Source of the DNA: an uncultured Candidatus Saccharibacteria bacterium
Lineage (GTDB): Bacteria; Patescibacteriota; Minisyncoccia; Phycocordibacterales; CSBR16-119
NCBI GenBank assembly: GCA_964426385.1
Contig: CAYRQF010000004.1
Coordinates: forward strand, 12,573 to 76,572
Direction: 5' to 3'
DNA: 64,000 nt
Shown here: piece by piece, positions 21,008 through 43,138 of the stretch
Layout: the number at the start of each line of letters is the position of its first letter
Position numbering within the stretch: position 1 is the first letter of the stretch
Translations under genes and position numbers: made by a program
Notes under the pieces: generated by a model
Told to the model about the DNA's origin: nothing
Databases searched by the model: none
The model's input: the letters and a program-made list of their open reading frames with translations, nothing else

Positions 21008-21056
21008 GTACACGACGAGGTTATAGGAAATAGGTCTTAGGTTATAGAATAAACAT

Positions 21057-23176: not shown

Positions 23177-25465
23177 ATGAAATTCGCAATTAAGCTACTC
23201 AAGAAAACATTCTGCCTCGTCCTGATTGCATCACTGTTCAGTCAGACTGCGCTAGTTTTTTCTCCTGAGTATGTGGAGGCTCAAGGGGTGGGCGGGGGCG
23301 CCTCAGGACAGGTTAGCACAGGCTTCGGAGCCTCGGGCATAATAGGTACCGCTCTAAACTGTTCAGGTGTGATGGATAAGCTGGCCGGCGCACTCAGCGG
23401 CCTGTTCAAAGTTACTGTAAAAGAAGTGCCTGTAGGGGATAATACAAACAACACTAAAGAGGGTTGCCTTGACAGTATCGCTCACGAAATCGTCGTCCGT
23501 ATCATGGATAAGATAACTCTAGCTACTGTTGATTGGATCAATAATGGTTTCGAGGGTCAGCCACTTTTCCTAGAAGACCCTCAGAAATTCTTTGAAAACG
23601 TGGCCGCTCGCGAGATTAACTCTCTGACCGGTTGGTTTACAGCTAGCCCAGAGGGCTACCCGTTCGGGCAGATTGTTATGACAACAATACTTACGAATCT
23701 ACAATCACAGTTCTCCCAGAACGTTCAGTTCTCACTGAACGAAGTATTGGCACATGGAACATATGAAGATTTCAGATTCAATTTCAATGTCGGCGGATGG
23801 GCCGGCTATTCAGCTTTTTATAAACCAAATAACAACCCTTTTGGTAACTATTTACTTGTTAACCGAGAACTCGGTAGGAAGATCGGAGGGACGACTATTA
23901 CTGTCGGTGACAACTATAGTAAACAGATTCAGCAGTCTGGAGGATTCTTGAATCAGAGAAAGTGTGTAGTGTCAGGAACAGGTAACAACGACTATATCCC
24001 AGAAGACGATGAGTCAGGGTACCATATACCATCAGGTGGCATGCCTACGATCGCCCTCTGGGAGTTCTTGATTGGCGCCGATCAGGGTACACCGGCATTT
24101 CAGAGCGTTTACGACCAACTCCAGCCGGGATTCACTGGACCACTCACCGCACAGGCCACAGACGTTCAGGCTCAGATAGAAAACTATGAACTACGCAGTA
24201 CATGTCGCGAGTGGAAAACTATTACGCCAGGCAAGGTGGTTTCAGATCAGCTGACATCCGCACTCAACATACCTACGAATCAGTTGATACAGGCCGACGA
24301 GGTCAGTGAGAACCTCGCGCTCATTTTCGACGCGTTACTACTTCAGTTGGTAAACACAGGACTACGATCCCTCGACGGGGATGATCCTTCTACGAACGTT
24401 GCGTTGGCACAGGTCCAGGGCTTACAGCCAGGGCAGGTTTCAAACGGTCAGACCCCTCCTCCATCGGTTGATACAATAACTGGAACAGGATATTCACAAG
24501 AGCCATTAGTTCTGGTGCAACAGTCCTATATTCAGCAGGCTCAGCAAGCTATGCCAGTTCTGGATAATTTAATACGTAAGATTAAAGCTTTGGATTATTG
24601 TGTACCCGGACCGCACCCTTCTTGGGTTGATGAGGCTCAGCAAAACTTAGAGAATTCATTACTCAGTGTCGGGGCTTTTGCCTCCAGTAACCCAGACCCT
24701 CAGGACGCCGAAGATGAGAATCAAGATTACTACGCTAGCGTTATCCAGAGTCTAACCGGTATAACAATAGAACAAAGCCCGGCGATGCATAACCATACTC
24801 AGTTTATGGATTTTATGAACAACCTTTACGCAAAATATTCCGAAAAGATGCTAAATCCTAGTGACGCTGGATATAATCGATTCTTGACCCCGCCTTCTAC
24901 CAGAATATTCCTGGAAAATCTATTGAATGAGATGCAGGTTTACCAAGCCTCGTATGATGATCTAAATGAATATCTTAATAACATTACCTCATATTTACCA
25001 ACACTTATATCTATAGAGGCAACTATAAATAACATCGCACAGACTAACGGTGGAATAGTTGATCCGACCAACCCACAGGTTCAGGCGCAGATATCATTGT
25101 TTGAGAGTATCAATAGTCATTTCGCCACGGAAGCACAGCTCAGTGATTTGCAGACAAATTACGTATTGTTCCAGAACAGGGAGACCACAGTAAACAGTCA
25201 TTTGGATAGCTGTATAACCGAAACGGTGGTTGGGCCATACAATAATCCGAATAATAGGGTGGCTTATCCAGCTGCGATATTCCCATATGTACACAGTGTC
25301 TCATTGGTACCACTTCCGGGCCCGAACGACAGCTTCTTCGATGGAATTCAATTTGCTGGCAATACAAACAACGGCAACATAGATGTTACTTTTGGTGGGG
25401 TCAATATCAATGCAGGTGCGACACTTGACACATTCGAAGACCAGGTTCTCCAGTCCATCTACTAG
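23177..25465 (+). CDS. large secreted hypothetical protein (762 aa, Gln/Asn-rich)
   Basis: Signal peptide MKFAIKLLKKTFCLVLIASLFSQTALVFSPEYVEA. No recognisable catalytic motifs. Confidence 0.6.
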   Translation: MKFAIKLLKKTFCLVLIASLFSQTALVFSPEYVEAQGVGGGASGQVSTGFGASGIIGTALNCSGVMDKLAGALSGLFKVTVKEVPVGDNTNNTKEGCLDSIAHEIVVRIMDKITLATVDWINNGFEGQPLFLEDPQKFFENVAAREINSLTGWFTASPEGYPFGQIVMTTILTNLQSQFSQNVQFSLNEVLAHGTYEDFRFNFNVGGWAGYSAFYKPNNNPFGNYLLVNRELGRKIGGTTITVGDNYSKQIQQSGGFLNQRKCVVSGTGNNDYIPEDDESGYHIPSGGMPTIALWEFLIGADQGTPAFQSVYDQLQPGFTGPLTAQATDVQAQIENYELRSTCREWKTITPGKVVSDQLTSALNIPTNQLIQADEVSENLALIFDALLLQLVNTGLRSLDGDDPSTNVALAQVQGLQPGQVSNGQTPPPSVDTITGTGYSQEPLVLVQQSYIQQAQQAMPVLDNLIRKIKALDYCVPGPHPSWVDEAQQNLENSLLSVGAFASSNPDPQDAEDENQDYYASVIQSLTGITIEQSPAMHNHTQFMDFMNNLYAKYSEKMLNPSDAGYNRFLTPPSTRIFLENLLNEMQVYQASYDDLNEYLNNITSYLPTLISIEATINNIAQTNGGIVDPTNPQVQAQISLFESINSHFATEAQLSDLQTNYVLFQNRETTVNSHLDSCITETVVGPYNNPNNRVAYPAAIFPYVHSVSLVPLPGPNDSFFDGIQFAGNTNNGNIDVTFGGVNINAGATLDTFEDQVLQSIY

Positions 25466-25543
25466 CGTGGTATTTACACACATATTTTACCTAGAACCAC
25501 TTGGCCAGGTGGTATAATCTGGTCATTGCACTAGGCAGTTTAT

Positions 25544-27709
25544 TTGCGCCTTTTTATAATGAAGAAATTTTTCCTCTCACTCATTATCGGGTTACTCATA
25601 TTTGGTCCTGTTACGGGGTCCGTGCCTTTGGCGCACGCTCAAGTGAATCCGAGCGAGAACCCTTATCAGAGTTATGAGAACGAAGTAGGTGAGTGCTGGG
25701 CACTGAACAAGGGTATCGACATAGGCATGTGTTTCGCCTGGGTTATGTACTTCTTCGCTTGGATCACCAGTAGCTTCGCCGAGCTTACTGCTATGCTCAT
25801 GGACTACTTCCTAGCGTACTCTCTCGATAGTGGGTCATATAGTGGAGCCAACAATCAGTTCGTGGAGATGGGTTGGTCTATCATCAGAGATATCGCGAAC
25901 ATTTTCTTCATATTTACACTTCTCTATATCGCCATCCGTCATATATTGCAGATGGGCGGGAGCGATACGAAAAAACTGCTCACGAGTCTCATCATCGCGG
26001 CGCTACTCATCAACTTCAGTTTGTTTTTTACCAAAGTCATCATCGACAGTAGCAACATTTTAGCCAGGGCGTTCTATAACAATATCGTGGTAGAGAATGA
26101 TGACAACCTCGACCATAAATCCATTTCTCAAGCACTCGTTTCTCAGGTGAACCCGCAGAAACTCATATCATCAGACATGTTCAAGCCGGTCCCAGCTCCA
26201 GGAAGACTTCCGACCGAGCCTGATGCCGGATGGCTCATCACAATATTTTTCCTTGCGACCATCGTGAACATCGCTATGGCTTGGATATTCCTGAGTACAT
26301 TTTTGCTATTTATAGCGCGCGTTATCGGACTCTGGTTCATGATGATATTCTCGCCGATTGCTCTCGCTTCCAGGGCTATTCCCGGAGCTGAGGGTATGCT
26401 CGGGGATTTTGGTTGGAGTGGTTGGATCAAGAGCACACTCAAACTCGCTTTCATGGCGCCGATATTCGTGTTCTTCCTTTTCCTCCTCACGATGTTTTTG
26501 AACGTTGCGCTCCAGTCAGTTACGGTAGAGGTGGACCAGAGCACGATGCAACGCATCATGTCTGTGCTCATTCCTTTCATGGCTATTATCATCATTATGA
26601 CAAAGGCCAAAGACACTGCTACTGAGATGGCCGGAACGTTCGGTCAGGCAGTATTGAGTGGTGTCGGTAAACTTGCCGGGTTCGCAGTCGGCGCTGCGGG
26701 TGTCGGTCTTGCGGGAACGGCAATGGTAGCTAGGGGAACCATCGGCCGTGCCGCCACTGCCGCCGCTGGCAGTAGGAGTTTCCAAGAAGCTGCATCAAAG
26801 AACAAATACTTTCTTGCTAAAAGTTTGTATAAGGGGGCTCAAGCCGCTTCAAAGGGAAGTATGGACGCGAGAAATAGTACTGGCTTTAGGAGAACTACAG
26901 GTTTGCTAGCCTCAGGCTTGGCAGCGGCTGGTATTGCAACCAAAGCAGACCTTGGAAAAGGTACTACAAGAGGTGGGTACTCACAGCGGTTAGAAGAATA
27001 TCAAAAGAAGAAAGAGAAATTCAAGGAAGATCTCAAGTCTTCGGATCATGATACTTTTAGTGTTACTGATCCTAGAGATCCAACCAAAACCCTTACAACA
27101 TCAGTCATTCAAGCCGAAACCGAATTTTTGAAAGCTCAGAATGAAGCAAAGAGAAAAGACGAAAATAAAAATATAAAAAGTGCTACTATCGGCAACCCAA
27201 GGGAGGATGTCGTTAAAGATTATGATGGTTGGGTAAAAGAAAAAGAAAAAGCCGAAAAAGCCCAGAAACAAGCAGAGATCGATTTTGCAAACGTTCAGAG
27301 GGACCCAGCTTCAACACTTGTGCAAAAAGATGCTGCAAGGGTAAAGAAAGACTATTTTACCGACAGGCATGCTGAAATTAGAGGTGTGGTAAAAGGAATA
27401 GAGGAAAACTGGGAAACTGAGGAGAAGATCTTCAAGGGAATCAAGAGAGAGCAGACCAAACATGACACTAAGGTGTTACAACAATACGCCGAGTCCGTTA
27501 AACCAGTCTCACTCGACACATCTTCTCTTGGCGCAGGTATAAAAACTGGCAGTATGGTTGCACTGGCGCAACTATATGGTTTGGCAAATGGATCAGAAGG
27601 CACATACGTTGCAGGAAGAAGTGCAGCTTCTGCAGAACTTGCACGTTCTGCCGAGAAGGAGGAGAAGAAAGCTCAGGCTGAGGCGAAAAAAGACGACAAG
27701 AAAACATAA
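25544..27709 (+). CDS. polytopic membrane protein, putative VirB6/TrbL-like channel component with Lys-rich cytoplasmic tail
   Basis: Signal/TM segment followed by at least six hydrophobic helices over aa 60-400, then a long hydrophilic KE-rich C-terminus. The size and topology fit TrbL/VirB6. It lies two genes upstream of the VirB4-like ATPase. Confidence 0.45.
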   Translation: MRLFIMKKFFLSLIIGLLIFGPVTGSVPLAHAQVNPSENPYQSYENEVGECWALNKGIDIGMCFAWVMYFFAWITSSFAELTAMLMDYFLAYSLDSGSYSGANNQFVEMGWSIIRDIANIFFIFTLLYIAIRHILQMGGSDTKKLLTSLIIAALLINFSLFFTKVIIDSSNILARAFYNNIVVENDDNLDHKSISQALVSQVNPQKLISSDMFKPVPAPGRLPTEPDAGWLITIFFLATIVNIAMAWIFLSTFLLFIARVIGLWFMMIFSPIALASRAIPGAEGMLGDFGWSGWIKSTLKLAFMAPIFVFFLFLLTMFLNVALQSVTVEVDQSTMQRIMSVLIPFMAIIIIMTKAKDTATEMAGTFGQAVLSGVGKLAGFAVGAAGVGLAGTAMVARGTIGRAATAAAGSRSFQEAASKNKYFLAKSLYKGAQAASKGSMDARNSTGFRRTTGLLASGLAAAGIATKADLGKGTTRGGYSQRLEEYQKKKEKFKEDLKSSDHDTFSVTDPRDPTKTLTTSVIQAETEFLKAQNEAKRKDENKNIKSATIGNPREDVVKDYDGWVKEKEKAEKAQKQAEIDFANVQRDPASTLVQKDAARVKKDYFTDRHAEIRGVVKGIEENWETEEKIFKGIKREQTKHDTKVLQQYAESVKPVSLDTSSLGAGIKTGSMVALAQLYGLANGSEGTYVAGRSAASAELARSAEKEEKKAQAEAKKDDKKT

Positions 27710-27717
27710 GTAAATCT

Positions 27718-28353
27718 ATGGATCTAGAATTCAAGAAAAAAATAGAAGAGCGCATGAAACAGCTTCCCTCTGTCCTGGCCAAGGCCATCAAGGCTTCGAA
27801 CTGGGAGAGTATCGTTTTCGATATTGGTCGCAGACACTCGCTTCATGTCGACGACATCGGCGACCTACAGAACGAACTTATCCTCGTCCTAACTGGCATC
27901 GTTCATCCTGACGAATTCCGTCATATTGTCATCAGTGAGATCGGTATCCCCGAAGACAAAGCCGACGTTATCATCGAAGAGATCAACGACCAAGTAAACG
28001 AGAAGATAAAAAACGAACTGAAGTCCATTATGGACGACGCAGACGAAGACAAAACTGTCGATACCGAGAGCGGGGAACTTGCTGGGTCTGAGAAGGAAGT
28101 CCTTAGAGATAGTGGTATCCGCCTCGGAGATGACGTCGATGAGACGGCGAATCAGCACACTCCTCCGGTAGCAGACGGTGTAGAAGCGCCGACTGTCGCA
28201 GTGCAGGCTCCGAAACCAGAACCAAAGCCTGTGAATCCAGTAACTGCGAAAATTATCGCCGAGCCTCAGGTGTTCAAGACTCGCATCTCTCCGGCAGAAG
28301 TCGGTGAGGCCGGCAGGGGATTCAGTGATCCTTACCGCGAGCCAGTAGAATAA
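27718..28353 (+). CDS. hypothetical acidic protein
   Basis: ORF in an operon-like arrangement, separated by an 8-nt gap from the VirB6-like gene. Confidence 0.5.
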   Translation: MDLEFKKKIEERMKQLPSVLAKAIKASNWESIVFDIGRRHSLHVDDIGDLQNELILVLTGIVHPDEFRHIVISEIGIPEDKADVIIEEINDQVNEKIKNELKSIMDDADEDKTVDTESGELAGSEKEVLRDSGIRLGDDVDETANQHTPPVADGVEAPTVAVQAPKPEPKPVNPVTAKIIAEPQVFKTRISPAEVGEAGRGFSDPYREPVE

Positions 28354-28447
28354 TTAGCTGATGGCTTATAGCTGTTAGCTTATAGAGAAATAATAAATTC
28401 CTAAAAGCTAAACGCTATCCGCTATAAGCTCGTGTTATAATACATTC
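28354..28447 (+). promoter_or_regulatory. Conserved promoter/operator module (copy A): GCTTATAGC palindromes followed by the extended -10 TGTTATAAT
   Basis: atggcttatagctgttagcttatagag...cctaaaagc...cgctataagctcgtgttataata is shared with 31695-31790. Related half-copies lie at 9337-9366 and 9730-9761. Confidence 0.55.
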
Positions 28448-28867
28448 ATGCGATTCCAAGTTCCGCAATTTATTGATATTGAAGACAAGATTTTTGGACC
28501 TTTTACGTTCAAGCAGTTTGTCTATCTCGCGGGAGGGGCTGGATCAGCCTATGCTATCTGGAAGCTCTTGCCGACACTTATCGCAGTTTTCCTCGTGCTC
28601 CCTATAATCGGGCTCGCTCTCGCGCTGACATTTTATAAAGTGAACGGCAAGCCATTTATCGAAGTCTTACAGGCCTATGCTTCGTATTCGACAAAGAGCA
28701 AGCTTTTTATTTGGAAACAGAGAAAGATTGAGAAAAAGAAGAAATTTGCCGAAGCTCCGAAGGAGAGTCGTCATCCGATGTCTAACATCCCTAGACTTAC
28801 CGAGAGCAGGCTGTCGGATATTTCATGGAGTTTGGATGTGCTCGATATGGAGAAGCGCGATAAATAA
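28448..28867 (+). CDS. small two-TM membrane protein (possible VirB3/TcpE-like component)
   Basis: Hydrophobic hairpin FVYLAGGAGSAYAIWKLLPTLIAVFLVLPIIGLALALTFY. A small membrane protein immediately upstream of VirB4 is typical of type IV secretion loci. Confidence 0.35.
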   Translation: MRFQVPQFIDIEDKIFGPFTFKQFVYLAGGAGSAYAIWKLLPTLIAVFLVLPIIGLALALTFYKVNGKPFIEVLQAYASYSTKSKLFIWKQRKIEKKKKFAEAPKESRHPMSNIPRLTESRLSDISWSLDVLDMEKRDK

Positions 28868-28975
28868 TCCCAAAACTGATTTTACTACCACAAAATGATA
28901 ATTTTAAATCACAACACAAAATTGGTCGGATCAGAATTTATTAGCATGATCAAAAATCAGTAACGGGACAAGTAT

Positions 28976-29626
28976 ATGGCATTAAACGCTAAAGCATCAC
29001 AAGATTTTGTTCCGATCAAAGCCATCCAAGATGGTGTGGTGGTCCTCAAGGATGGGGGACTTCGTGCCATTCTTATGGCGTCATCTGTTAACTTGTCGCT
29101 CAAGTCCGAGGATGAACAGACAGCGATCATCATGCAGTTTCAGAATTTTCTGAACACCCTCGATTTTTCACTGCAGATTTGCGTCCAGTCGAGAAAGTTT
29201 AATATTACTTCGTATGTAGGACTTCTCGAAGAGAGACTCAAGGAGCAATCCGAGCCACTTCTCAAGATTCAGACTGAGGAATATATCAAGTTCATCAAAG
29301 AATTTACCGAGTCGACGAACATCATGACGAAACACTTCTTCCTGGTCATCCCGCTCCAGCCACTCCAGTCAGTTAGTGGGTCAGCTACGGGACTCCTGGA
29401 TAAGGTTTTGCCGACTAATAAGAAAGAAAACTTGGCGGAGAAGGAGAAAGCTTTTAGTGAGGAGCGTTCCCAGCTCGAACAGAGAGTCGCCCTGACCGTT
29501 CAGGGGCTTTCGCGATTGGGTATCAGAACTGTTCAGCTCAAAACCGAAGACGAGGTCGAGCTTTTTTACCGAGTGTTCAATCCCGGAGATGCCGAGAGTG
29601 CTATCGATATAACCAAAGGACAATAA
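28976..29626 (+). CDS. hypothetical protein, translationally coupled to the VirB4-like ATPase
   Basis: Its stop TAA is separated by a single nucleotide from the next ATG (caaTAAtATG). Confidence 0.5.
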   Translation: MALNAKASQDFVPIKAIQDGVVVLKDGGLRAILMASSVNLSLKSEDEQTAIIMQFQNFLNTLDFSLQICVQSRKFNITSYVGLLEERLKEQSEPLLKIQTEEYIKFIKEFTESTNIMTKHFFLVIPLQPLQSVSGSATGLLDKVLPTNKKENLAEKEKAFSEERSQLEQRVALTVQGLSRLGIRTVQLKTEDEVELFYRVFNPGDAESAIDITKGQ

Positions 29627-29627
29627 T

Positions 29628-31694
29628 ATGGGAATATTTGATCTTATAAAAGGAACAAAGTCGTCCAAGAATCCGAAGAGGGAAATAATGCCCGTACTGC
29701 CGGAGGAGATTTATAAGGCGGCAACACTGGAGCTCCAGGATATTCTCGCGCCGTCTGCACTCAAAATCTCGCCAAAAGCTCTGAACCTCGGCGATAAAAT
29801 CGCACGTACATACTTCGTCATTTCTTATCCTAGATTTCTCTCAGATAACTGGTTCACCCCGATCATCAACCTCGATAAAATATTTGATATCGCTATCCAT
29901 ATCCATCCTCTCGATACGAACACCATACTCAGGAAATTCCAGAAGAAAGTTGCCGAAGTCCAAAGCCAGGTCAACGTTCGCGAATCCAAAGGTCTCGTCC
30001 GTGACCCTGTCCTCGATACTGCATATCAGGATCTCGAGGGGTTACGCGACAGTCTCCAGCAGGCTCAGGACAAAATGTTCGATGTCGGGCTCTATATTAC
30101 AGTCTACGCAGACTCGATGCAGGAGCTTTCGAAGATAGAGAATGAGATCAAGTCTATACTAGAGGCCAAGCTCGTGTATATCAAGCCGGCACTCTTCCAG
30201 CAGGACGTCGGGTTCGCCTCTGTCGCACCACTCGCAACGGATTTCCTCGCCGTTCATCAGAAGATGAACACAGAACCGCTATCTTCGATATTCCCATTCG
30301 TTTCTTTCGACCTGTCTTCTGACAAAGGGATTCTCTATGGTATCAACCGTCACAACTCTAGTCTTATTATTTTCGATCGCTTCTCTCTAGAGAACTATAA
30401 CTCGGTTACTTTTGCCAAGTCCGGTTCTGGTAAGTCATACTCGACCAAGCTAGAAATCCTCCGAACACTCATGTTTGACTCAGAAGTCATCGTTATCGAC
30501 CCTGAGAGAGAATACGAGTACCTATCCGAGGCCATCGGTGGACGGTATTTCAATATCTCGCTCTCATCTGAGCACCATATCAACCCTTTTGACCTACCGA
30601 TACCAACCGAAGACGAGACTCCAGAGGATGTACTCCGCGCTAACACTATCCAGCTCGTGGGAATGTTTCGTATCATGCTCGGAGGGCTAACTCCGGAGGA
30701 GGATGCGATTATCGACAAGGCAGTGACCGAGACATATGCGCTCAAAGACATTACTTCTGACTCGGATTTTGCGAATATCGAGCCACCACTGCTATCGGAC
30801 TTCGAGATGGTTCTGTCGGGTATCGATGGATCAGAGTCCATCATGACTCGTCTTACTAAGTACACAAAGGGTTCGTGGAAAAATTTCATCAACCAGCCGA
30901 CAAACGTCGACATCAACAAGCGATTTATCGTCTTCTCCGTACGAGACATGGAGGATGACCTAAAACCTGTCGCCATGTATATCGTTACGCACTTCATATG
31001 GAACGCCGTCAGGAAGAATCTGAAGAAACGTCTCCTTATCGTCGACGAGGCCTGGTGGATGATGAAGTCAGAAGATACGGCGTCTTTCCTCTACTCTATC
31101 GCCAAGCGTGGACGCAAATATTTCCTCGGACTCTCAACTATCACTCAGGACGTTAACGACTTCGTGGCGTCTCAGTATGGTATGGCTATCGTCACGAACT
31201 CATCTATGCAACTACTTCTCAAGCAGTCTACTAGTTCAGCAGATGCACTACAGAAAGTGTTCAACCTGACCGATGAAGAGAAGTATCTTTTGCTCGAGTC
31301 AGAGGTAGGAGAGGGTATATTTTTCGCTGGATTGAAACACGTAGCCATAAAAATCATTGCCTCCTATACCGAAGATCAGATCATAACCTCAGATCCATCA
31401 CAGGTGCTCGCTATAAAAAAAGCCAAAGAGGAGTTCCGTGAGGGTGAGAAGGCTTTTCAGCAAGGAGAAACCGAGAGGATTCAAGGAGCGATCGATAGCC
31501 AACCAAAAGACGAGTATATTCCGTCCCAACAGCCAGAACCTGTAAGTCTAGAAAAAGAAATAGGGGATTCGCCAGAAGTTCTGACTCCTACACCAGATAA
31601 AAAGCCAAAAAACGAATCCGACAGTCTCGAAAGCTTCAGCGATGGGTTAGACAAAGAAATCGACGATCTCGAGAAGATGTTTAAAGACTACTAA
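29628..31694 (+). CDS. VirB4/TraE/TcpF-family type IV secretion ATPase (Gram-positive type)
   Basis: N-terminal FVISYPRFLSDNWFTPIINLD motif, Walker A FAKSGSGKSYST, the ...VIVIDPEREYEYL segment, and Walker B LLIVDEAWWMM. Confidence 0.8.
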   Translation: MGIFDLIKGTKSSKNPKREIMPVLPEEIYKAATLELQDILAPSALKISPKALNLGDKIARTYFVISYPRFLSDNWFTPIINLDKIFDIAIHIHPLDTNTILRKFQKKVAEVQSQVNVRESKGLVRDPVLDTAYQDLEGLRDSLQQAQDKMFDVGLYITVYADSMQELSKIENEIKSILEAKLVYIKPALFQQDVGFASVAPLATDFLAVHQKMNTEPLSSIFPFVSFDLSSDKGILYGINRHNSSLIIFDRFSLENYNSVTFAKSGSGKSYSTKLEILRTLMFDSEVIVIDPEREYEYLSEAIGGRYFNISLSSEHHINPFDLPIPTEDETPEDVLRANTIQLVGMFRIMLGGLTPEEDAIIDKAVTETYALKDITSDSDFANIEPPLLSDFEMVLSGIDGSESIMTRLTKYTKGSWKNFINQPTNVDINKRFIVFSVRDMEDDLKPVAMYIVTHFIWNAVRKNLKKRLLIVDEAWWMMKSEDTASFLYSIAKRGRKYFLGLSTITQDVNDFVASQYGMAIVTNSSMQLLLKQSTSSADALQKVFNLTDEEKYLLLESEVGEGIFFAGLKHVAIKIIASYTEDQIITSDPSQVLAIKKAKEEFREGEKAFQQGETERIQGAIDSQPKDEYIPSQQPEPVSLEKEIGDSPEVLTPTPDKKPKNESDSLESFSDGLDKEIDDLEKMFKDY

Positions 31695-31790
31695 CAGAGC
31701 TTACAGCGTATGGCTGTTAGCTTATAGAAATTCCACAAAATACCTAAAAGCAATAAGCTATACGCTAAAAGCTCGTGTTATAATATTTCC
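31695..31790 (+). promoter_or_regulatory. Conserved promoter/operator module (copy B)
   Basis: atggctgttagcttatagaa...cctaaaagcaataagctatacgctaaaagctcgtgttataata is homologous to 28354-28447. Confidence 0.55.
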
Positions 31791-32384
31791 ATGCCAAATA
31801 CCAAAAATGATGATGGGAATTCTATAAACCAGAATGATAAGACTACGCTCCATGGAGCTGGAGTCGACCTATCCGACACACCAGTCGAACCAGAGTCAGA
31901 AGGTGAAAAGATTGTCGACATAGACGGATCGATTCCTTTGGGGAGTGACCCAGATCTAGAGAAGTCCGGAGTCAAATTTGTAGAGGCCGATGTGCCTGTA
32001 ACAGACCTATCAGCGTTAGCCGAGAAAAAGGCCAAGACCGTAAGCTCAGCCGCCAAAGACCTCGAAGCAGAATTCCGGTCTGAGCTTGCTGATTTTAAGG
32101 GACCACTCAAGCCTGATGGTGAGAAAGCCGTTATGGAAAAAAGCGGAACACTGCGATCGATGCTTACTTTGGTCCGGGAGAAGCTCGGTCTGAAGAAGAA
32201 GACAGTAAAGTCAGAACTCGAGAGTCTAAAAAAGATGAAAGATGCTATCACCAAAGACATCACAACGATAAAAGAGCTCGAAGAGTCCGAAAACAAGATC
32301 AATACAGAGCTTGGTAAAATCGATGAGATAAAGAAAGAAGTAGAGGAGATAGAGAAGGACTTGGCGGATGATCTAAATAAATAA
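31791..32384 (+). CDS. hypothetical acidic coiled-coil protein
   Basis: K/E-rich heptad-like C-terminal half. Confidence 0.5.
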   Translation: MPNTKNDDGNSINQNDKTTLHGAGVDLSDTPVEPESEGEKIVDIDGSIPLGSDPDLEKSGVKFVEADVPVTDLSALAEKKAKTVSSAAKDLEAEFRSELADFKGPLKPDGEKAVMEKSGTLRSMLTLVREKLGLKKKTVKSELESLKKMKDAITKDITTIKELEESENKINTELGKIDEIKKEVEEIEKDLADDLNK

Positions 32385-32388
32385 AATC

Positions 32389-33375
32389 ATGAAGGCTTTG
32401 CAAATTATAAAATTGAGTGTAGTCGGATATATTTTTCTTGCACCTCTTTTTATATTTGCTCAAATGCCAGGTATAGAACAATCTTTTAGTTTGTCTTTTT
32501 CTCCACAGAACCCTAGCCCTGGAGAGTTGGTAACATTTGGGGTTTCCGCATATGAGTTCAATATAGATTTAGCAAACATCGTTTGGAGTGTCGATGGCAA
32601 ATCCGTTAAATCAGGTAAGGGGGTCAAAGGATTCACGTTTGAAGCCCCTGCCAATGGTAAATCTAGCACCATCTCTGTTGTGGTGTCGCCAGCCACTGGG
32701 ACCCCTATAGAGAAAAGCATAACCATTTCTCCTGCAGACATCGATCTCATATATGAGGTAATGGATGGTTACGTCCCGCCTTTCTACCGAGGAAAGATAC
32801 TGCCGATAAAACAGAGTCAGATCAAGGTGGTGGCTCTCCCGAACGTGAAGACGATGACAGGTGGGACAGCTAAAGCAAAAGATTTCGTATATACATGGCG
32901 CAAGGATAGTGAGAACCTCCCAGGACAGTCAGGGTTTGGACGCAGTAGTGTTACTTTTGTAAATGAGATACTCGACCGTGGAAATACTCTCGAGGTCTCA
33001 GCGACAAACGGTCTCAAGAAAGTTGACGGGGCGATAGTTATTAATTATCTCGAGCCGGAAATACTTTTTTATGAATATGACATATTGACCGGAGTTAAAT
33101 ACCAGCGAGCATTTAGGTCAGGAGAGAATATTAAGCAGCCAAAACTTAGCATCATTGCAGAGCCGTACTTTCTGTCACGGGACTTTATGCCGAACAAGGA
33201 TATCGCGGGCACTTGGATGCTAAATGGTCAGAAGGCTACTCCTGTCGCCAAGAACAATCTTATTATCAATACCAGCGCAACGTCTGGCAAAGTCGATATA
33301 AGTTTCGAGTATAACGAGGCGAAACGACTGTTTCGTAGTTTTAAGAAATCACTGAGTCTTAACTTGGTCAACTAG
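32389..33375 (+). CDS. secreted hypothetical protein
   Basis: Signal peptide/TM IIKLSVVGYIFLAPLFIFAQ. The composition is beta-rich. Confidence 0.55.
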   Translation: MKALQIIKLSVVGYIFLAPLFIFAQMPGIEQSFSLSFSPQNPSPGELVTFGVSAYEFNIDLANIVWSVDGKSVKSGKGVKGFTFEAPANGKSSTISVVVSPATGTPIEKSITISPADIDLIYEVMDGYVPPFYRGKILPIKQSQIKVVALPNVKTMTGGTAKAKDFVYTWRKDSENLPGQSGFGRSSVTFVNEILDRGNTLEVSATNGLKKVDGAIVINYLEPEILFYEYDILTGVKYQRAFRSGENIKQPKLSIIAEPYFLSRDFMPNKDIAGTWMLNGQKATPVAKNNLIINTSATSGKVDISFEYNEAKRLFRSFKKSLSLNLVN

Positions 33376-33377
33376 CA

Positions 33378-34958
33378 ATGCAGAGCTCACTAAAGAAAAT
33401 TTTTATACTTTCCACTATACTCCTCATCGCAGGATTCATTTTCTCTAGGCCGGTATCTGCTCAGAACGCGAACTGCAACGTCATCGATGCGGACATACGA
33501 CATAACATTACGAATGTTTTAGATCCATCGGGGGACGAAGACGGAGATGGCGAAACTAACTTCCAGGAGGAATTCTTTGTCGACGGTAATCCGCCCCTCG
33601 TATATCTCGATATAAAAACCCTCGGTTGTATAGACACTGACGATGTCTACGATATGCAGCTTTCTCTGACAGAGACAGATATACCACCAGTTATAGATCC
33701 TAACGATAACGTCGACGATATCATTGAACTGGACGATTGGGAAATAAACGTCGAAGACAATAATGACTTTACTGTAGTTTATCTCGCGGGGGAAGATGAG
33801 TGCGGAGGAGGTGGAGAGCCAGATTGTCAGTACCATATCGAGACAGACGATGGAAATTCTTCTAATGATCCTTGGAGCGGTCTTTGGTACAGTTGCGATG
33901 TTACCTGCGAAGAAGATTGGGCATACATAGGTATGATTCCTTACGGTCAGAACCACCCTCAGGATACAGCAGGGAATAATACTAATACGAATACTAGCCT
34001 AGGTACCTTGGCGTCAGATGCATACCTCGCACCTCTCCCAGGACTTGAGGGGCAACCCGGAACACTGAACGGTTTCCTCGAGGGACTATTCCAGGTGCTC
34101 ATAGTCGTGGCCGGACTTCTCGCCATGATTATGCTCGTAGTTGGAGCCATAACATATCTATCGAGTGATGCGTTTAGTGGCAAGACTGAGGGCAAAGACA
34201 TGATGTTGTCTGCGGTATTCGGCCTCATTCTCGCACTTGGCGCCTGGGTTATCATAAACGCCATCAATCCGAACCTCGCATCAAATCTCGGTATCACTAT
34301 CCCAGTCGCAAGACTGTCTATGCTTGAAGGAGATTCAGCCGTTTACTCTCCCGGGGCGACAAGCTCAGAAGGTGGAACAATTACAGGGTTCAGTTTGCCC
34401 ACAGATATCGGGCTCTATTGCCCGCTTTCGGGTGGATCAGGGCAAGTGCCGGCTATTATCGACAGCTTCGTCGGTAAGGTGGCATATCGATGGGGAGGTA
34501 AGGGCGGCCCTTTGCCAGCTGGACAGAATTACCCACTCAGTCCTTTTGAGACAGAGAACCCCTTTAAGTGTACAGATGATACGGGTGCGCAGGTTCCATG
34601 TAATACGTTCTGTCCGTCAGGAAATGCTTGTTTAGATTGCTCAGGATTTACGAACCATGTTAGGAAATGTGCTGGACTTCCATACTTTGCAACGGGGACA
34701 TACGGCATGACCCAGGAAGCCTCAGCCGAAACAGTTGAGATGAATACGCTTAACGCTACTGGTACACAGATAGGGAGCTATGTTTTGGTCCCGGGCGATA
34801 TACTTGTTTGGAATGGTCACGTCGTCATCTATTATGGTAATGGCAAGATAGCAGAATCTTCTGGAGGTACTCAGGGTCGCGCCAAGAACGGTAACGTGAA
34901 CCTGTCTAGTATCAAGAAATACAAGAACAAGATAACGCATATAATAAAAGTCCAATAA
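33378..34958 (+). CDS. secreted protein with pilin-like double-TM hairpin and C-terminal NlpC/P60 (C40) cell-wall hydrolase domain
   Basis: Signal peptide. Mid-protein hydrophobic hairpin LFQVLIVVAGLLAMIMLVVGAITYL...MMLSAVFGLILALGAWVIINAI resembling VirB2/TrbC pilins. C-terminal YRWGGKG...LDCSGFTNHV...GDILVWNGHVVIY carries the NlpC/P60 Cys-His signature. Confidence 0.6.
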   Translation: MQSSLKKIFILSTILLIAGFIFSRPVSAQNANCNVIDADIRHNITNVLDPSGDEDGDGETNFQEEFFVDGNPPLVYLDIKTLGCIDTDDVYDMQLSLTETDIPPVIDPNDNVDDIIELDDWEINVEDNNDFTVVYLAGEDECGGGGEPDCQYHIETDDGNSSNDPWSGLWYSCDVTCEEDWAYIGMIPYGQNHPQDTAGNNTNTNTSLGTLASDAYLAPLPGLEGQPGTLNGFLEGLFQVLIVVAGLLAMIMLVVGAITYLSSDAFSGKTEGKDMMLSAVFGLILALGAWVIINAINPNLASNLGITIPVARLSMLEGDSAVYSPGATSSEGGTITGFSLPTDIGLYCPLSGGSGQVPAIIDSFVGKVAYRWGGKGGPLPAGQNYPLSPFETENPFKCTDDTGAQVPCNTFCPSGNACLDCSGFTNHVRKCAGLPYFATGTYGMTQEASAETVEMNTLNATGTQIGSYVLVPGDILVWNGHVVIYYGNGKIAESSGGTQGRAKNGNVNLSSIKKYKNKITHIIKVQ

Positions 34959-34962
34959 TCTC

Positions 34963-36588
34963 ATGCAAAACAAAAAACTTTTCAAAATTCTAGGACTCAT
35001 CGCACTTTTTCTCCTCATTATTTTCTCATGGGTGGTTATACGCGATGCCCAAAGGAAAAAGATTCTTAACACTCCGACACCGACAGGACTCGAGAATCCT
35101 TTTGGTGTGAGTCCTGACGGAGAAGGGTTTCCTCGAAGCGGGGAGGACGATGTCGACATCGGTACTCCCGATGAGACACCAGTAACAGGGGGGACTACAG
35201 GGACTAGCGTCATAGTTGTCGAGGATAATCCGGCCCTCAAACAACTATATACGAAACCCGTCGCGGGATTCACTTTCTGGAACGAAGAGCGAGAGCTACC
35301 AGAGGAACTCTCGACGACACCATCCGCATCGGTTGTCGAGGTTTATGATTTCTCAGGCTACAAAACAGTACGATTCGGCGACAAAGCTGACGAGATAGTG
35401 ACTATCAAGACTGTATTAAATAGGCAGACTCCAAGCCCGGGTCTCATCATCGACAGCAATTACGACACAGACATGAAGAACGCCGTCGTAGATTTCCAGA
35501 ACAGAAATGGTCTCGGAGGAGATGGTGTAATTGGGCCAAAGACTTATGCCAAATTCAATAGTTTTCAGGGTATCACCACGTTCTCTTCTGTAAAGAAGCC
35601 GATAAACACAGAGACGGTACCGATGGTTCGCTTCGTTGATGCCGGATCGGGCATCATGTCTGATCAAGCAATTCGAAAAGCAGAAGAGGTGCGCAAGATT
35701 ACTACGGTGTCGGTTCCCAGGGTAGCTGAAGCATTCTTTGATAATACAAAAAATAACGTTGTGATGAGATATGTCAAAGATAATGTCATCCAGACTTATG
35801 TAGCCAAACTTACTTTTGCCAAGATTGACCCCAACCTCACCTGGGCTGAGAAGGAGGCCATAACCAAGATTGCCGAGGTTACGGGCGAGTTTCTACCAGA
35901 GAACATCGACACTGTCGCGATGTCTCGCGACAAAAAGAGTTTGTTTTACATGACGCGAGTCGGTAGTGGTTCAGCCGGGCTCGTATATAACTTTTCGAGT
36001 AAGACCAAGAAGCAGGTATTCGACTCACCACTTCGAGAGTGGCTCATCGACTGGGGTAATGATATAAAAGTAAATCTCACAACAAAGGCTTCAGGTCAGG
36101 CTCTCGGGTATTCGTTTGTTCTCGACACGAAGACGGGTTCTTTCTCTAAGACTCTCGGAGGGGCAAACGGGCTCACGACTCTAATGAGTCCAGATGGTAA
36201 GAAGGTTCTGTACGCTGAAGCAACTGGAGGAAGCCTTTCTACATATGTCACCGAGCTCAGTACTGGCAAGAAAACTTCCATATCTCCATCTGCCATGCCA
36301 GAGAAGTGTGTTTGGACACGAGACTCAAAAGCCATATACTGTGCCGCCCCGATCAAGAGCGTATCGTTTGCCTATCCCGACGATTGGTATAAGGGAAAGG
36401 TAAGCTTCAGTGATGCACTGTGGATGATCGACGCTACAGACTATGTCGGTAACATAGAGTATGATTTCAAATCAAAAAACGGCGTTGATGTGGACGCCAT
36501 GAATCTCCAGCTCCGGGATGAGGAGGACTACATAGGCTTCATCAACAAGAAAGATGGAAGTCTCTGGGGACTAGATTTATCGAGATAG
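34963..36588 (+). CDS. exported protein with peptidoglycan-binding (PG_binding_1-like) motif and TolB-like beta-propeller region
   Basis: N-terminal TM. NYDTDMKNAVVDFQNRNGLGGDGVIGPKTYAKF matches the PG-binding helical-bundle motif. C-terminal repeats such as SPDGKKVLYAEATGGSLSTYV resemble TolB/WD40-like blades. Confidence 0.5.
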   Translation: MQNKKLFKILGLIALFLLIIFSWVVIRDAQRKKILNTPTPTGLENPFGVSPDGEGFPRSGEDDVDIGTPDETPVTGGTTGTSVIVVEDNPALKQLYTKPVAGFTFWNEERELPEELSTTPSASVVEVYDFSGYKTVRFGDKADEIVTIKTVLNRQTPSPGLIIDSNYDTDMKNAVVDFQNRNGLGGDGVIGPKTYAKFNSFQGITTFSSVKKPINTETVPMVRFVDAGSGIMSDQAIRKAEEVRKITTVSVPRVAEAFFDNTKNNVVMRYVKDNVIQTYVAKLTFAKIDPNLTWAEKEAITKIAEVTGEFLPENIDTVAMSRDKKSLFYMTRVGSGSAGLVYNFSSKTKKQVFDSPLREWLIDWGNDIKVNLTTKASGQALGYSFVLDTKTGSFSKTLGGANGLTTLMSPDGKKVLYAEATGGSLSTYVTELSTGKKTSISPSAMPEKCVWTRDSKAIYCAAPIKSVSFAYPDDWYKGKVSFSDALWMIDATDYVGNIEYDFKSKNGVDVDAMNLQLRDEEDYIGFINKKDGSLWGLDLSR

Positions 36589-40783: not shown

Positions 40784-43138
40784 ATGACTTTATTGAAAAC
40801 AAAAGCAAAAATTTTAGTATTAATTTCGCTCGTTTTCATATCTGTTTTTACCATAATCCGTTCTACCGGCACCGCAGAGGCGCAAAATGTTGCCCTAGAA
40901 CCTGGAGACGTTAGCGGTTTCGCCTGGATGGGTCAGAATATAGTAGATGGCGTCGCGACTCCTCAGGGGGGCGGAGGCTGGCTGGCACTCAATTGTAAGC
41001 CGACCGACTGTGACAGTGGTGCATGGGGTGTCAAAATGAATCTTGAGGAAGGTCCAAACAAGGGTAAGTTCACCGGCCAAGCTTGGAGTTCAAATTACGG
41101 TTGGTTGTCGTTTGATGAGAGTGATGTAGCGTCGTGTATCGGCCATACGCCTGGGGTTAGTCCAAATTCAGTAAAGGCGGATATCATCAGTGGGGTAGAT
41201 GAGGCTCCGATGAGAGGCTGGGCCAAGTTCGTTGCCGGTGATGCGCAGACTGACGGATGGGATGGCTGTGTCGCATTTGATGGGTCTCCATTTATAAGGA
41301 CATTTGTAGACATGAACAACGGCTTTATCCACGGCTGGGCTTGGGGTGGTAGTGTTGTTGGATGGATAAGCTTTAATAATCCTGAGTGTCAGTATTGCAA
41401 TACAGCCGTTGTTCTATCAGCTGCCCCCCAAATAACTTTCTGGGCAACCCCGGCCTCTATAAATACCGGCGGAAGTTCTACATTAAATTGGACGAGTACA
41501 GTAATTAGCGGAAACTATGTTGCATCATGCGAAGAGTATGGTAATACAAGCAACTACAGCCATTGGACAAGCACGGGAATGCCGACCGCTGCCAACGTGG
41601 GAGATATCAGTGTAGCTGACGGCAATCTACCCGCAGGATCACATCCGATAAACAATATTAGTGCCACGACTACATATAGTATCAAGTGTAAAGATAAATA
41701 CGGCGCTATTTTACCAGAGAGGTTTGCAACAGTTACTGTAAATCCTTCGGCAACAACTCTAGATCTTACTGTTTCGAGCCCTACCCTTCAGATCGGTAGT
41801 GGAAACTATGATGAAATACTGAAGTGGACATCCAATAATCCGACTGCATTACATTCTTGTGTAGGTCAGTTCTACAGAGCTTCGAACTTTACCCCAGCAA
41901 TGTCACAGAACCTAACTGGATGGACAGGAATCGCTCTTCCTTCACCAGTTCAAAATAATTACACCGCCGTTAGAGACGCCGCCGTTGGGCCGAACCAGTT
42001 CGCCACAAAAGCCGCAGGAGTATTCAGCGCTGCACCCAACATCAGGTTCATATTCAGTATTAGTTGCCAAGATTCTTCTAATGGAGATGCTTTAGTTTAT
42101 GATTCTGCTCAGGTTCAAATGATCGGTGGTACAACGTGTACTGATCCGGCTGCTGCAAATAATGGTGGACCACTCCCATGTATGTATCGAGCGTGTACTG
42201 ACCCTCTGGCAAACAATGACGTCGCTCCCGGACCTACGATTATCTCGGACAATACACTGTGTACGTATGATAGCAATCCTGGTTCTCCGAGAATATCCCT
42301 TAGTGTCGATCCTCAAATCTTCTATACTAACGCCACAGACTTCGATGTGAACCTCTCGTGGACAGCGACAGCTCCTGTAAACAACTGTGTCGGATCGTTC
42401 ACTATTGAAGACGGCAGTCCTGCCTGGGATAGTCTGCCGGGTTGGACATCTGGAATTACTGGCGGTAACGGCACGCTCCCTGAGCCTAACCTGACAGTTG
42501 CTAGCTGGACTCAGCAGAATGTCGCCTTCAACAACCTTTTGTCTAATGAAGCTGACATTCCGATGACCTACACGTTCCGTCTAGAGTGTGAAGATCCTGG
42601 AGGAGGTCCTGACCCTGCCGATACGGCATCTGTGACACTATTGCCTTGGACACCTATATATGAGCCACCACAAGTCAATCTCTTCATCCAGTCGCCAAAT
42701 GTTGATCCAGTGCCAAGTATTCAAGATACACAGGATCCTCAAGGGTTCAAGAAAGAGATAATCTCAAGTACGGTTGGATACCCTGCGGTGGTACTTAGAT
42801 GGCAAGATTTGAACACTAGCGTCTGTTCTGCATCCTCCGCAATGTATGATGATGCGACGGGTACGAATATAATAGGCTCAAATGCTGACTGGAACGGACA
42901 AATTGCACAAGACTTTGATCCAACCAATAACACAGCCACTCTCGATATCACTGCTCCGGCAGTCTTGCATCCGACTAAGTTCATCATTACCTGTATTCCT
43001 GATGATCCAGCATATCAACCGCCTAACGTTCCATCGCTTCCTACGGCTTGGGTTTGTGTAGGACTCTCTGGTAAGCCATTCCCCGCATGTTCTGTTACGG
43101 GTAGTGGAGGAGGAACTCCGACATACATCGAGATTTAG
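40784..43138 (+). CDS. large secreted Cys/Trp/Gly-rich hypothetical protein (784 aa)
   Basis: Signal peptide. Repeated motifs of the form G(F/Y)AW...GW(L/I)SF (GFAWMGQNIVDG, AWSSNYGWLSFD, GWAWGGSVVGWISFN). Many Cys residues. Confidence 0.6.
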   Translation: MTLLKTKAKILVLISLVFISVFTIIRSTGTAEAQNVALEPGDVSGFAWMGQNIVDGVATPQGGGGWLALNCKPTDCDSGAWGVKMNLEEGPNKGKFTGQAWSSNYGWLSFDESDVASCIGHTPGVSPNSVKADIISGVDEAPMRGWAKFVAGDAQTDGWDGCVAFDGSPFIRTFVDMNNGFIHGWAWGGSVVGWISFNNPECQYCNTAVVLSAAPQITFWATPASINTGGSSTLNWTSTVISGNYVASCEEYGNTSNYSHWTSTGMPTAANVGDISVADGNLPAGSHPINNISATTTYSIKCKDKYGAILPERFATVTVNPSATTLDLTVSSPTLQIGSGNYDEILKWTSNNPTALHSCVGQFYRASNFTPAMSQNLTGWTGIALPSPVQNNYTAVRDAAVGPNQFATKAAGVFSAAPNIRFIFSISCQDSSNGDALVYDSAQVQMIGGTTCTDPAAANNGGPLPCMYRACTDPLANNDVAPGPTIISDNTLCTYDSNPGSPRISLSVDPQIFYTNATDFDVNLSWTATAPVNNCVGSFTIEDGSPAWDSLPGWTSGITGGNGTLPEPNLTVASWTQQNVAFNNLLSNEADIPMTYTFRLECEDPGGGPDPADTASVTLLPWTPIYEPPQVNLFIQSPNVDPVPSIQDTQDPQGFKKEIISSTVGYPAVVLRWQDLNTSVCSASSAMYDDATGTNIIGSNADWNGQIAQDFDPTNNTATLDITAPAVLHPTKFIITCIPDDPAYQPPNVPSLPTAWVCVGLSGKPFPACSVTGSGGGTPTYIEI

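Follow-up and report, generated by a model that had tools for sequence, protein, structure and literature searches.

How the type IV secretion systems (T4SS) of Patescibacteria cross two cell walls, and what cargo they carry, is the question at stake in a gene found on a 64,000-nucleotide stretch of DNA from an uncultured Candidatus Saccharibacteria bacterium (GenBank assembly GCA_964426385.1, contig CAYRQF010000004.1, positions 12,573 to 76,572 of the forward strand). The whole of this stretch is referred to as the window, and all coordinates are given within it unless another locus is named. The gene (33378..34958, + strand, ATG to stop) encodes a protein of 526 amino acids (aa) in which a VirB2-like pilin module is joined to a peptidoglycan hydrolase domain of the NlpC/P60 type; an identical protein is present in the NCBI collection (P0001). 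The gene is part of a T4SS cluster, and its product is probably the wall-breaching component of a chromosomal, Patescibacteria (Paceibacteria-like) T4SS, built from a complete VirB2-like pilin module and a NlpC/P60 peptidoglycan endopeptidase. Since near-identical strains have another enzyme domain at this place, the protein seems to be a tool for breaching walls that these ultrasmall and probably host-dependent bacteria can exchange. No T4SS had been shown before that of Patescibacteria to be essential to the cell that carries it, and theirs is also the first monoderm one suspected of having a VirB2-type pilus (PMC10633639; PMC12857230).

Architecture of the fusion protein

A preliminary description of the gene held up in its outline. 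The open reading frame (ORF) was found as described, with all four peptides quoted from it at the expected places: LFQVLIVVAGLLAMIMLVVGAITYL at aa 237–261, MMLSAVFGLILALGAWVIINAI at aa 274–295, LDCSGF at aa 419–424 and NGHVVIY at aa 479–485. Three hydrophobic stretches were located by hydropathy (aa 3–28, 229–266 and 274–301). The first ends in VSA|QN and agrees with the signal peptide that had been proposed; this Sec-type signal peptide covers aa 1–28 (33378..33461), with a predicted cleavage site at MQSSLKKIFILSTILLIAGFIFSRPVSA | QN. In the AlphaFold2 model the region forms a helix (aa 2–21) followed by residues of low confidence (aa 23–30).

Behind the signal peptide lies a beta-rich N-domain (aa 29–208; 33462..34001), predicted to be outside the cytoplasm. 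It is as acidic and as rich in cysteine as had been claimed, with 43 acidic and two basic residues (net charge −41) and six Cys at positions 33, 84, 142, 150, 173 and 177. These Cys columns are invariant or nearly so in the alignment of homologues. The pilin module follows (aa 209–312; 34002..34313) and consists, in order, of a YLAPLPG motif, helix 1 (aa 230–262; 34065–34163), a loop with the residues S-D-A/FSGKTEGK, helix 2 (aa 266–296; 34173–34265) and the motif NPNLASNLGITIP (34266–34304). The remainder of the protein (aa 313–526; 34314..34955) is made up of a flexible linker and the NlpC/P60 endopeptidase domain, and it is this part that behaves as an exchangeable cassette. All features lie on the + strand.

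The AlphaFold2 model had a mean pLDDT (predicted local distance difference test) of 79.9. Beta strands were placed at aa 34–188, the two long helices of the hairpin were modelled with a pLDDT of 82–90, and the C-terminal domain exceeded 90 from aa 330 onwards, with a helix at aa 421–431 and a strand at aa 481–487. Linkers at aa 200–217 and 300–315 were disordered.

Homology of the pilin module

The two closely spaced helices had been compared with the pilin hairpins of VirB2 and TrbC, and this comparison was strengthened. The segment of aa 229–296 matched the Pfam family T4SS_pilin (PF18895) over profile positions 4–71 of 71 with 27.5 bits (cut-off 26.6, E = 3.4e-6). Out of 213 relatives collected, 202 matched the same family (82 of the 87 homologues of the whole protein and 120 of the 126 representatives from a search with the hairpin). 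A phmmer search with aa 209–322 against 1.84 billion representatives returned 10,799 clusters at E ≤ 1e-3, of which 1,513 reached E ≤ 1e-10; since the hairpin alone finds this number of representative clusters, the observation is far beyond chance. The link to the TrbC/VirB2 superfamily (PF04956) rests on the family and not on the fusion sequence: its cut-off of 27.9 bits was passed by the relative P0074 (29.2 bits), 13 of the 213 relatives matched at E ≤ 1e-3, and 9 of the 126 hairpin-search representatives had a match. The hairpin also gave a weak match, below the curated cut-off, to NCBIfam NF045849 (E = 3.8e-4), the Mbov_0395 family of pilin-like proteins from integrative and conjugative elements (ICE) of Mycoplasma.

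Stand-alone pilin-like proteins of 128–150 aa were among the matches, with 45–55% identity to the module. Their layout is a signal peptide, the motif Y.PLAPLPG, about 15 residues, helix 1, a TDA.SGK.EGK loop, helix 2, the motif NTINPNL and a short tail. The fusion protein has these parts in the same order and shares the motifs Y.PLAPLPG, GK.EGK and NTINPNL, and therefore keeps a complete module. Its N-domain lies as an insertion between signal peptide and first motif; the enzyme has been added behind the last one. In an alignment of 30 sequences the module was the most conserved segment, with 17 of the 23 invariant columns located in aa 234–309. By these results the hairpin is homologous to VirB2-like T4SS pilins and is more than a generic anchor. 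A simple membrane anchor, named as the alternative in the preliminary description, does not account for a full module whose flanking motifs match those of stand-alone pilins. No second pilin module was present in the window or in seven related loci of up to 20 kb (L002 to L008), and no second copy of the N-domain was found in the window.

Proteins with several modules also occur in the family. P0145 (1,147 aa) and P0134 (1,382 aa) each contain 11 tandem hairpin modules, while P0102 has four, followed by a canonical SLT domain; the number of tandem modules ranges from four to 11 across these poly-pilins, the entry P0104 included. They raise the question whether such proteins are processed proteolytically or represent covalently linked pilin oligomers.

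The NlpC/P60 domain

A profile built from the 39 homologues with this type of C-terminal domain matched solved NlpC/P60 DL-endopeptidases with E values from 3e-8 to 1e-4, namely CwlO (E = 3e-8), 7cfl, MepS/Spr and RipA. The catalytic Cys and His had been assigned to LDCSGF and NGHVVIY. This assignment proved correct in the alignment, where DCSGF and NGHV coincide with the catalytic Cys and the catalytic His, respectively, of the solved enzymes (DCSSF and NGHVGIY in CwlO). Cys421 (34638–34640), His481 (34818–34820) and Asp474 were invariant in all 39 sequences. In the model Cys421 opens the helix at aa 421–431 and His481 lies in the strand at aa 481–487, in keeping with the family. The Cys-His-His triad that had been suggested was abandoned: the position 12 residues past the His, Glu493 in this protein (34854–34856), is Glu in 31 and Asp in seven of the 39 sequences, and the predicted triad is therefore Cys-His-acid. 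NLPC_P60 was matched at E ≤ 1e-3 by 31 of the 87 homologues. A C-terminal NlpC/P60 domain with conserved catalytic residues is thereby supported by the sequence comparisons. No SLT domain was matched in the fusion protein by Pfam, and the protein is not a member of the VirB1 family.

Exchange of the C-terminal domain

All 87 homologues of the whole protein consist of the hairpin followed by a C-terminal domain of 140–290 aa. The fusion of a pilin with a wall enzyme is thus common in the phylum and not unique, and the polypeptide, which had been called unusual, has the architecture that dominates among its relatives there. An artefactual gene fusion is ruled out by the recurrence of this architecture in 87 independent homologues.

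The C-terminal domains fall into eight unrelated sequence classes. The largest is NlpC/P60 with 39 members; Peptidase_M15_4 has 13, YkuD two, and VanY and GH24 lysozyme one each, all by Pfam. A further class of six members (c5) is SLT-like, with ES...GLFQVN...AYA motifs and sub-threshold matches to SLT_3/SLT. Two classes had no assignment (c2 with 16 and c4 with eight members); PDB sequence searches, Pfam at E ≤ 5 and hhalign between classes (all probabilities below 7%) gave no identity for them. Motifs of the H..H..D or HxH type suggest LAS metallopeptidases for both, on our own reading of the sequences. In an AlphaFold model of P0044 compared by Foldseek, the beta-sandwich of the N-domain, homologous to that of the fusion protein, was matched alone and weakly, to carbohydrate-binding or Ig-like beta-sandwiches. 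By Pfam, five of the eight classes are wall-active.

One class of N-domain, comprising 61 proteins, was joined to at least five classes of C-terminal domain. The separation between conserved and exchanged parts is sharp. P0005 and P0024 are 100% identical in the N-domain and in the hairpin and 22% in the C-terminal domain; for P0003 and P0018 the values are 96.8%, 100% and 18%. At the DNA level, loci L003 and L004 are 99.1–99.5% identical to L005 over 2,237 bp up to about codon 304, show no similarity to it in the C-terminal domain, and return to 97.5–99.6% identity from the last 4 nucleotides (nt) of the gene. Between loci L008 and L002 the identity is 93.3% as far as codon 316 and 95.6% from the first nt past the stop codon. 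In these two independent strain pairs the replaced segment extends from about 10–20 codons past the NPNLA motif through the stop codon. The pairs show recent exchange at one locus, with all alleles in the same syntenic slot.

The gene downstream, which encodes a 541-aa protein with a PG_binding_1 domain (34963..36588, +; Pfam, 35.9 bits), stays constant across the swaps at 95.6–99.6% identity. No immunity gene co-varies with the cassette, since this downstream gene does not change with it, and no orphan cassettes were found in the window. The arrangement of a conserved pilin segment, a cassette and a conserved downstream gene is a scaffold that favours recombination.

The T4SS gene cluster

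The fusion gene is the tenth in a run of eleven genes on the same strand, separated by short gaps. It starts 1.7 kb past the end of virB4, with conserved synteny, and occupies the same slot in all seven related loci. The virB4 gene (29628..31694, +) encodes a VirB4-type T4SS ATPase (Pfam P-loop_TraG with 92 bits, AAA_10, DUF87). Its homologues, 79–93% identical and named VirB4 or TraC, come from metagenome-assembled genomes labelled Paceibacterota, Nomurabacteria, Pacebacteria and Patescibacteria group; named homologues of the fusion protein carry Paceibacterota/Patescibacteria-type labels as well. These names place the window in a Paceibacteria-like lineage of the Patescibacteria. Upstream of virB4 are genes for a polytopic membrane protein of 721 aa (25544..27709, +), a PrgI family protein, VirB3-like (28448..28867, +; Pfam PrgI, 41.1 bits against a cut-off of 27), and a TrsD/TraC-like protein that resembles the N-terminal part of VirB4 (28976..29626, +; partial matches to NCBIfam TrsD and VirB4_plasma), the orthologue of which bears a Pfam TraC-like domain in L002 and L003. 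The 721-aa protein is a candidate VirB6-like component, from its position, which is that seen in related loci, and from a weak match below cut-off to the NCBIfam Mbov_0396 ICE transmembrane family (E = 5e-4). Between virB4 and the fusion gene are two conserved genes for proteins of 197 aa and 328 aa (31791..33375, +), with no Pfam match above threshold; they always precede the fusion gene in L002 to L008, and the 328-aa protein begins with a hydrophobic stretch resembling a signal sequence.

The cluster is chromosomal. It is flanked by uvrD and ksgA on one side and by clpP, tig, ppa and nusA on the other, with genes for PNPase, EF-Tu, ribosomal proteins and glycolytic enzymes further out. The traits by which Patescibacteria chromosomal T4SS are recognised were found here, with an ATPase of the VirB4 type, PrgI/VirB3, TrsD, a VirB6-like protein and a VirB2-like module nearby; domains of a relaxase or a coupling protein, which these systems lack, did not turn up in the 39 larger ORFs of the window that were scanned. 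Published Patescibacteria T4SS are likewise chromosomal, without relaxase, related to the MPF-FATA type and equipped with VirB2-like pilins (PMC12102498; PMC12857230).

Divergence is uneven across the cluster (23177..36588). Between the window and L002/L003, the cytoplasmic or core components are well conserved, with VirB4 84%, TrsD 80–83% and PrgI 73% identical, while the parts predicted to be exported or membrane-embedded are 33–65% identical, among them a 762-aa protein (34–43%), a 211-aa protein (33–43%) and the VirB6-like protein (44–52%).

Proposed role in cell wall breaching

From these data a sequence of steps can be proposed. The protein would be exported by Sec and its signal peptide cleaved. 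The hairpin would then insert with its short, Lys-containing loop in the cytoplasm and with the N-domain and the enzyme facing outward; this orientation is predicted from the kinds of domain present and from the combination of a signal peptide with two helices, and it agrees with an N-domain of disulfide type and with a wall-active enzyme. The pilin module may dock on the VirB3/VirB4/VirB6 platform in the way VirB2 pilins do, or the protein may become a minor component of a pilus. Attached by a flexible linker of about 25 residues, the enzyme would cut stem peptides by means of Cys421, His481 and Glu493, a specificity expected because of the homology to DL-endopeptidases, and thus open the wall for the conduit; the adjacent PG_binding_1 protein may assist. 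The cassette would be replaced with other wall-active domains through homologous recombination in the conserved sequences on either side, the pilin-coding segment and the downstream gene, and the replacement itself is seen at the DNA level in relatives. On this reading the protein is comparable to a pilin-tethered functional analogue of VirB1 and PrgK with an exchangeable enzyme domain, though not a member of either family by sequence.

In our view, action on the cell's own wall must certainly be required. That the enzyme also attacks a host bacterium's wall is plausible, if speculative, and such a host-facing role is favoured because of the cassette diversity between strains that are 99% identical and the fast divergence of the exported parts. 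A more far-reaching version, which we consider rather unlikely as a whole, would have a VirB2-like pilin with a glycan-binding N-domain bring exchangeable wall-degrading 'warheads' (NlpC/P60, LAS-type metallopeptidases, YkuD, lysozyme, SLT) to the T4SS filament, either within it or on its surface. The epibiont would digest the host wall at the point of contact, and cassette exchange between strains by homologous recombination would fit the enzyme to the peptidoglycan chemotype of the host and help to set the host range. The precise swaps of enzyme domains in near-identical strains offer a testable handle on the host specificity of uncultivated epibionts.

Several points weigh against a pilin-borne wall-breaching enzyme. 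Pfam annotation had been proposed as a check on the preliminary description; T4SS_pilin passed its cut-off in the fusion protein, but NLPC_P60 (PF00877, MEROPS family C40; aa 418–498) remained just below, with 22.0 bits against 23 (E = 1.6e-4), and TrbC/VirB2 scored 18.5 bits (E = 0.0023), below its cut-off as well. Classes c2 and c4 leave 24 of the 87 proteins without an assigned function, and a wall-active role therefore applies to the identified cassettes, not to all. In Foldseek comparisons with the PDB the best match of the full-length model was the hydrolase Cg1735, a weak one (E = 1.5e-3), and the conjugative pilus match was 8dft from Pyrobaculum alone (E = 5.9). A helical hairpin carries little fold information and matches many things. 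No solved pilus is known to us in which a VirB2-like subunit carries large domains at its N and C termini. Finally, the activity, the bond cleaved, the topology, the localisation and any pilus are all inferred. As to the fold, a full-length multi-domain model was used as query, and such queries perform poorly; the models thus decide neither for nor against the pilin likeness of the hairpin. Other weak matches, in PDB and BFVD, included NlpC/P60 or CHAP domains of phage baseplate and tape-measure proteins.

Alternative explanations

The protein could instead be a true polymerising (major) pilin, extracted from the membrane by VirB4, so that N-domain and hydrolase are exposed on the outside of the filament, which digests the host wall that it touches. 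The termini of VirB2/TraA-type pilins are both on the exterior of the pilus, and domains fused to them would point outward. It fits this explanation that the module is complete and the most conserved part of the protein, that neither the window nor the seven related loci contain a second VirB2-like module, that the low-confidence linkers (aa 200–217 and 300–315) would let the domains splay, and that fast divergence of the exported parts and swapping of the cassette are what structures in contact with a host should show. About 400 extra residues per subunit would nevertheless be unprecedented for this type of pilus and leave little room in the filament. The genome beyond the visible 64 kb may encode stand-alone pilins, and the poly-pilins of the family, with their four to 11 hairpins in tandem, fit a simple polymerisation of subunits poorly. 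A major pilin armed in this way is distinctly unlikely.

The two conserved motifs around the hairpin allow another explanation, in which the protein is a polyprotein precursor. YLAPLPG and NPNLA..ITIP would then be processing sites, at which cleavage sets free a mature small pilin, the N-domain and a secreted hydrolase. C-terminal processing of TrbC/VirB2 pilins is established in the RP4 and Ti systems. Both motifs occur throughout the family and mark the ends of the stand-alone pilins, which, once the signal peptide is discounted, start near Y.PLAPLPG and stop a few residues past NPNL; the tandem poly-pilins repeat the full module with similar linkers, and the cassette breakpoint lies about 10–20 codons past the second motif. 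No protease gene was identified in the cluster by Pfam and NCBIfam scans, however, and pilin packing or recombination would explain the conservation of the motifs equally well. Processing of this kind we hold to be quite improbable.

It is highly doubtful that the protein is a housekeeping autolysin, used for growth and division of its own cell without a role in secretion, with a hairpin that descends from a pilin but serves as a mere membrane anchor. The solved enzymes nearest to it in sequence do point that way, as the growth autolysins CwlO, LytE and MepS are NlpC/P60 enzymes, and the cluster is chromosomal with housekeeping genes on its flanks. Against this, the gene is strictly syntenic with those for VirB4, PrgI and TrsD in every locus examined, and the full pilin module is conserved beyond the need of an anchor. 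A swap of bond specificity between strains of 99% identity is hard to reconcile with an autolysin tuned to growth. A separate wall hydrolase with LysM and Peptidase_M23 domains, encoded outside the T4SS cluster (12150..13178, −), is the likelier housekeeping autolysin.

Least credible, and very improbable, is a polymorphic antibacterial toxin comparable to CdiA, Rhs and LXG proteins, in which the N-domain and pilin form a conserved delivery region for variable C-terminal toxins that kill competitors: the precise swaps of unrelated domains at a fixed junction motif, with at least five classes on one class of N-domain, recall such toxins, but sequence identity resumes at the stop codon and no immunity gene co-varies, no orphan cassettes are present in the window, and the protein is predicted to stay tethered to the membrane. 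The classical toxin-immunity arrangement is ruled out by the downstream gene, which does not co-vary with the cassette.

Comparison with known systems

The preliminary description had seen a likeness to VirB1 and PrgK in function. The T4SS context (PrgI/VirB3, TrsD, VirB4 and a VirB6-like protein) supports this, while membership by sequence in the VirB1 (SLT) or PrgK families was not found. Several hydrolases of the PrgK, TraG, TcpG and CwlT type carry a CHAP or NlpC/P60 cysteine peptidase domain; they have a single N-terminal or lipid anchor and usually combine a muramidase or SLT domain with a peptidase. The fusion protein differs from them in having one enzyme domain, a central two-helix pilin hairpin and an extra exported N-domain of 180 aa, and no membership in their sequence families was found beyond the NlpC/P60 superfamily. 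PrgK (pCF10), TraG (pIP501), TcpG (pCW3) and CwlT (ICEBs1), which are cited in PMC12102498, are likewise membrane-tethered peptidoglycan hydrolases within a monoderm T4SS cluster that contains VirB4. VirB1, the SLT lytic transglycosylase of Gram-negative T4SS, has the same presumed role of opening the sacculus locally, but differs in fold and chemistry, as it cleaves glycan strands and not peptide stems. Closer to VirB1 in this respect are the SLT or SLT-like cassettes found on the same pilin module in other members of the family (P0102 and class c5).

The stand-alone PF18895 pilins of Patescibacteria, for example SEML1_0014–0019 of Southlakia epibionticum, have the same hairpin module with the motifs Y.PLAPLPG, GK.EGK and NPNL (PMC10633639; PMC12102498). 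They occur in the same phylum and are likewise linked to virB4, prgI and virB6-like genes. With about 100–185 aa they stand alone, often in arrays, whereas the fusion protein has a 180-aa N-domain and a 214-aa enzyme part, with no array in the window. In S. epibionticum, the one Patescibacterium with genetic data, the two wall hydrolases encoded directly downstream of virB4 and the PF18895 pilins of the array come from separate genes, all of them essential for epibiotic growth (PMC10633639, Table S2; PMC12102498). These hydrolases, SEML1_0006 and SEML1_0007, are in the same position, a few genes past virB4, and have domains of the same kinds (cysteine proteinase, lysozyme-like and Hedgehog/DD-peptidase; PMC10633639, Table S2). 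They differ in that no pilin domain is given for them in the table, in their much larger, multi-domain build and in the separate coding of the pilins.

Both the hairpin and its 721-aa neighbour gave weak matches, below the curated cut-offs, to families of the Mycoplasma ICE (NF045849, that is Mbov_0395, and the neighbouring Mbov_0396, respectively). This suggests shared ancestry of monoderm T4SS that already possessed a pilin-like protein. The Mycoplasma proteins of this kind are small, about 80 aa, and contain no enzyme. Polymorphic toxins (CdiA-CT, Rhs, LXG) resemble the fusion family in their conserved N-terminal part, fixed junction motif and exchangeable, unrelated C-terminal domains. The fusion family differs by the lack of a co-varying immunity gene and of orphan cassettes in the window, and those cassettes that could be identified remodel the wall and are neither nucleases nor pore-formers.

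T4SS-linked wall hydrolases, Patescibacteria T4SS with VirB2-like pilins and both Pfam domains were known before. Databases label relatives of the fusion protein either 'NlpC/P60 protein' or 'pilin'. In one published table KKT24894.1, encoded two genes after virB4, is classed as 'VirB2' by the T_virB2 profile within a protein cluster of the Candidate Phyla Radiation annotated PF00877 (Supplementary Table S3, PMC12102498); the pilin-hydrolase fusion is thus present in published supplementary data without comment. No paper describing the fusion or the cassette exchange was found in the searchable literature. A survey argues that genomes with VirB2 mostly have no VirB1 equivalent (PMC12102498). 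The architecture described here suggests another answer for this lineage, namely a hydrolase built into the pilin-like protein itself.

Other observations

Related T4SS clusters contain an extra small gene with 23S_rRNA_IVP or bAvd-like domains between the gene for the 211-aa protein and prgI (L002, 4766–5128; L003, 4715–5068; L006, 630–983). It is absent from the window between 28353 and 28448. bAvd is an accessory protein of diversity-generating retroelements.

Immediately before the T4SS cluster are the genes uvrD and ksgA/rsmA (19067..21866, +). The rsmA and uvrD genes of S. epibionticum have a 'phage tail-type lysozyme' gene between them (SEML1_0666–0668; PMC10633639, Table S1). The arrangement may be a relic of one once shared by both lineages, or a coincidence.

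A 338-aa ORF (49055..50071, −) matched Por_Secre_tail above the cut-off (E = 3e-7). This domain is the C-terminal sorting signal of type IX secretion and is unexpected in a monoderm, Patescibacteria-like genome. Two large ORFs had no Pfam match (1,840 aa, 13518..19040, +; 784 aa, 40784..43138, +), and a 1,009-aa protein (43308..46337, +) had a C-terminal Gly_rich_2 domain only. All three proteins are candidates for surface or host-interaction proteins.

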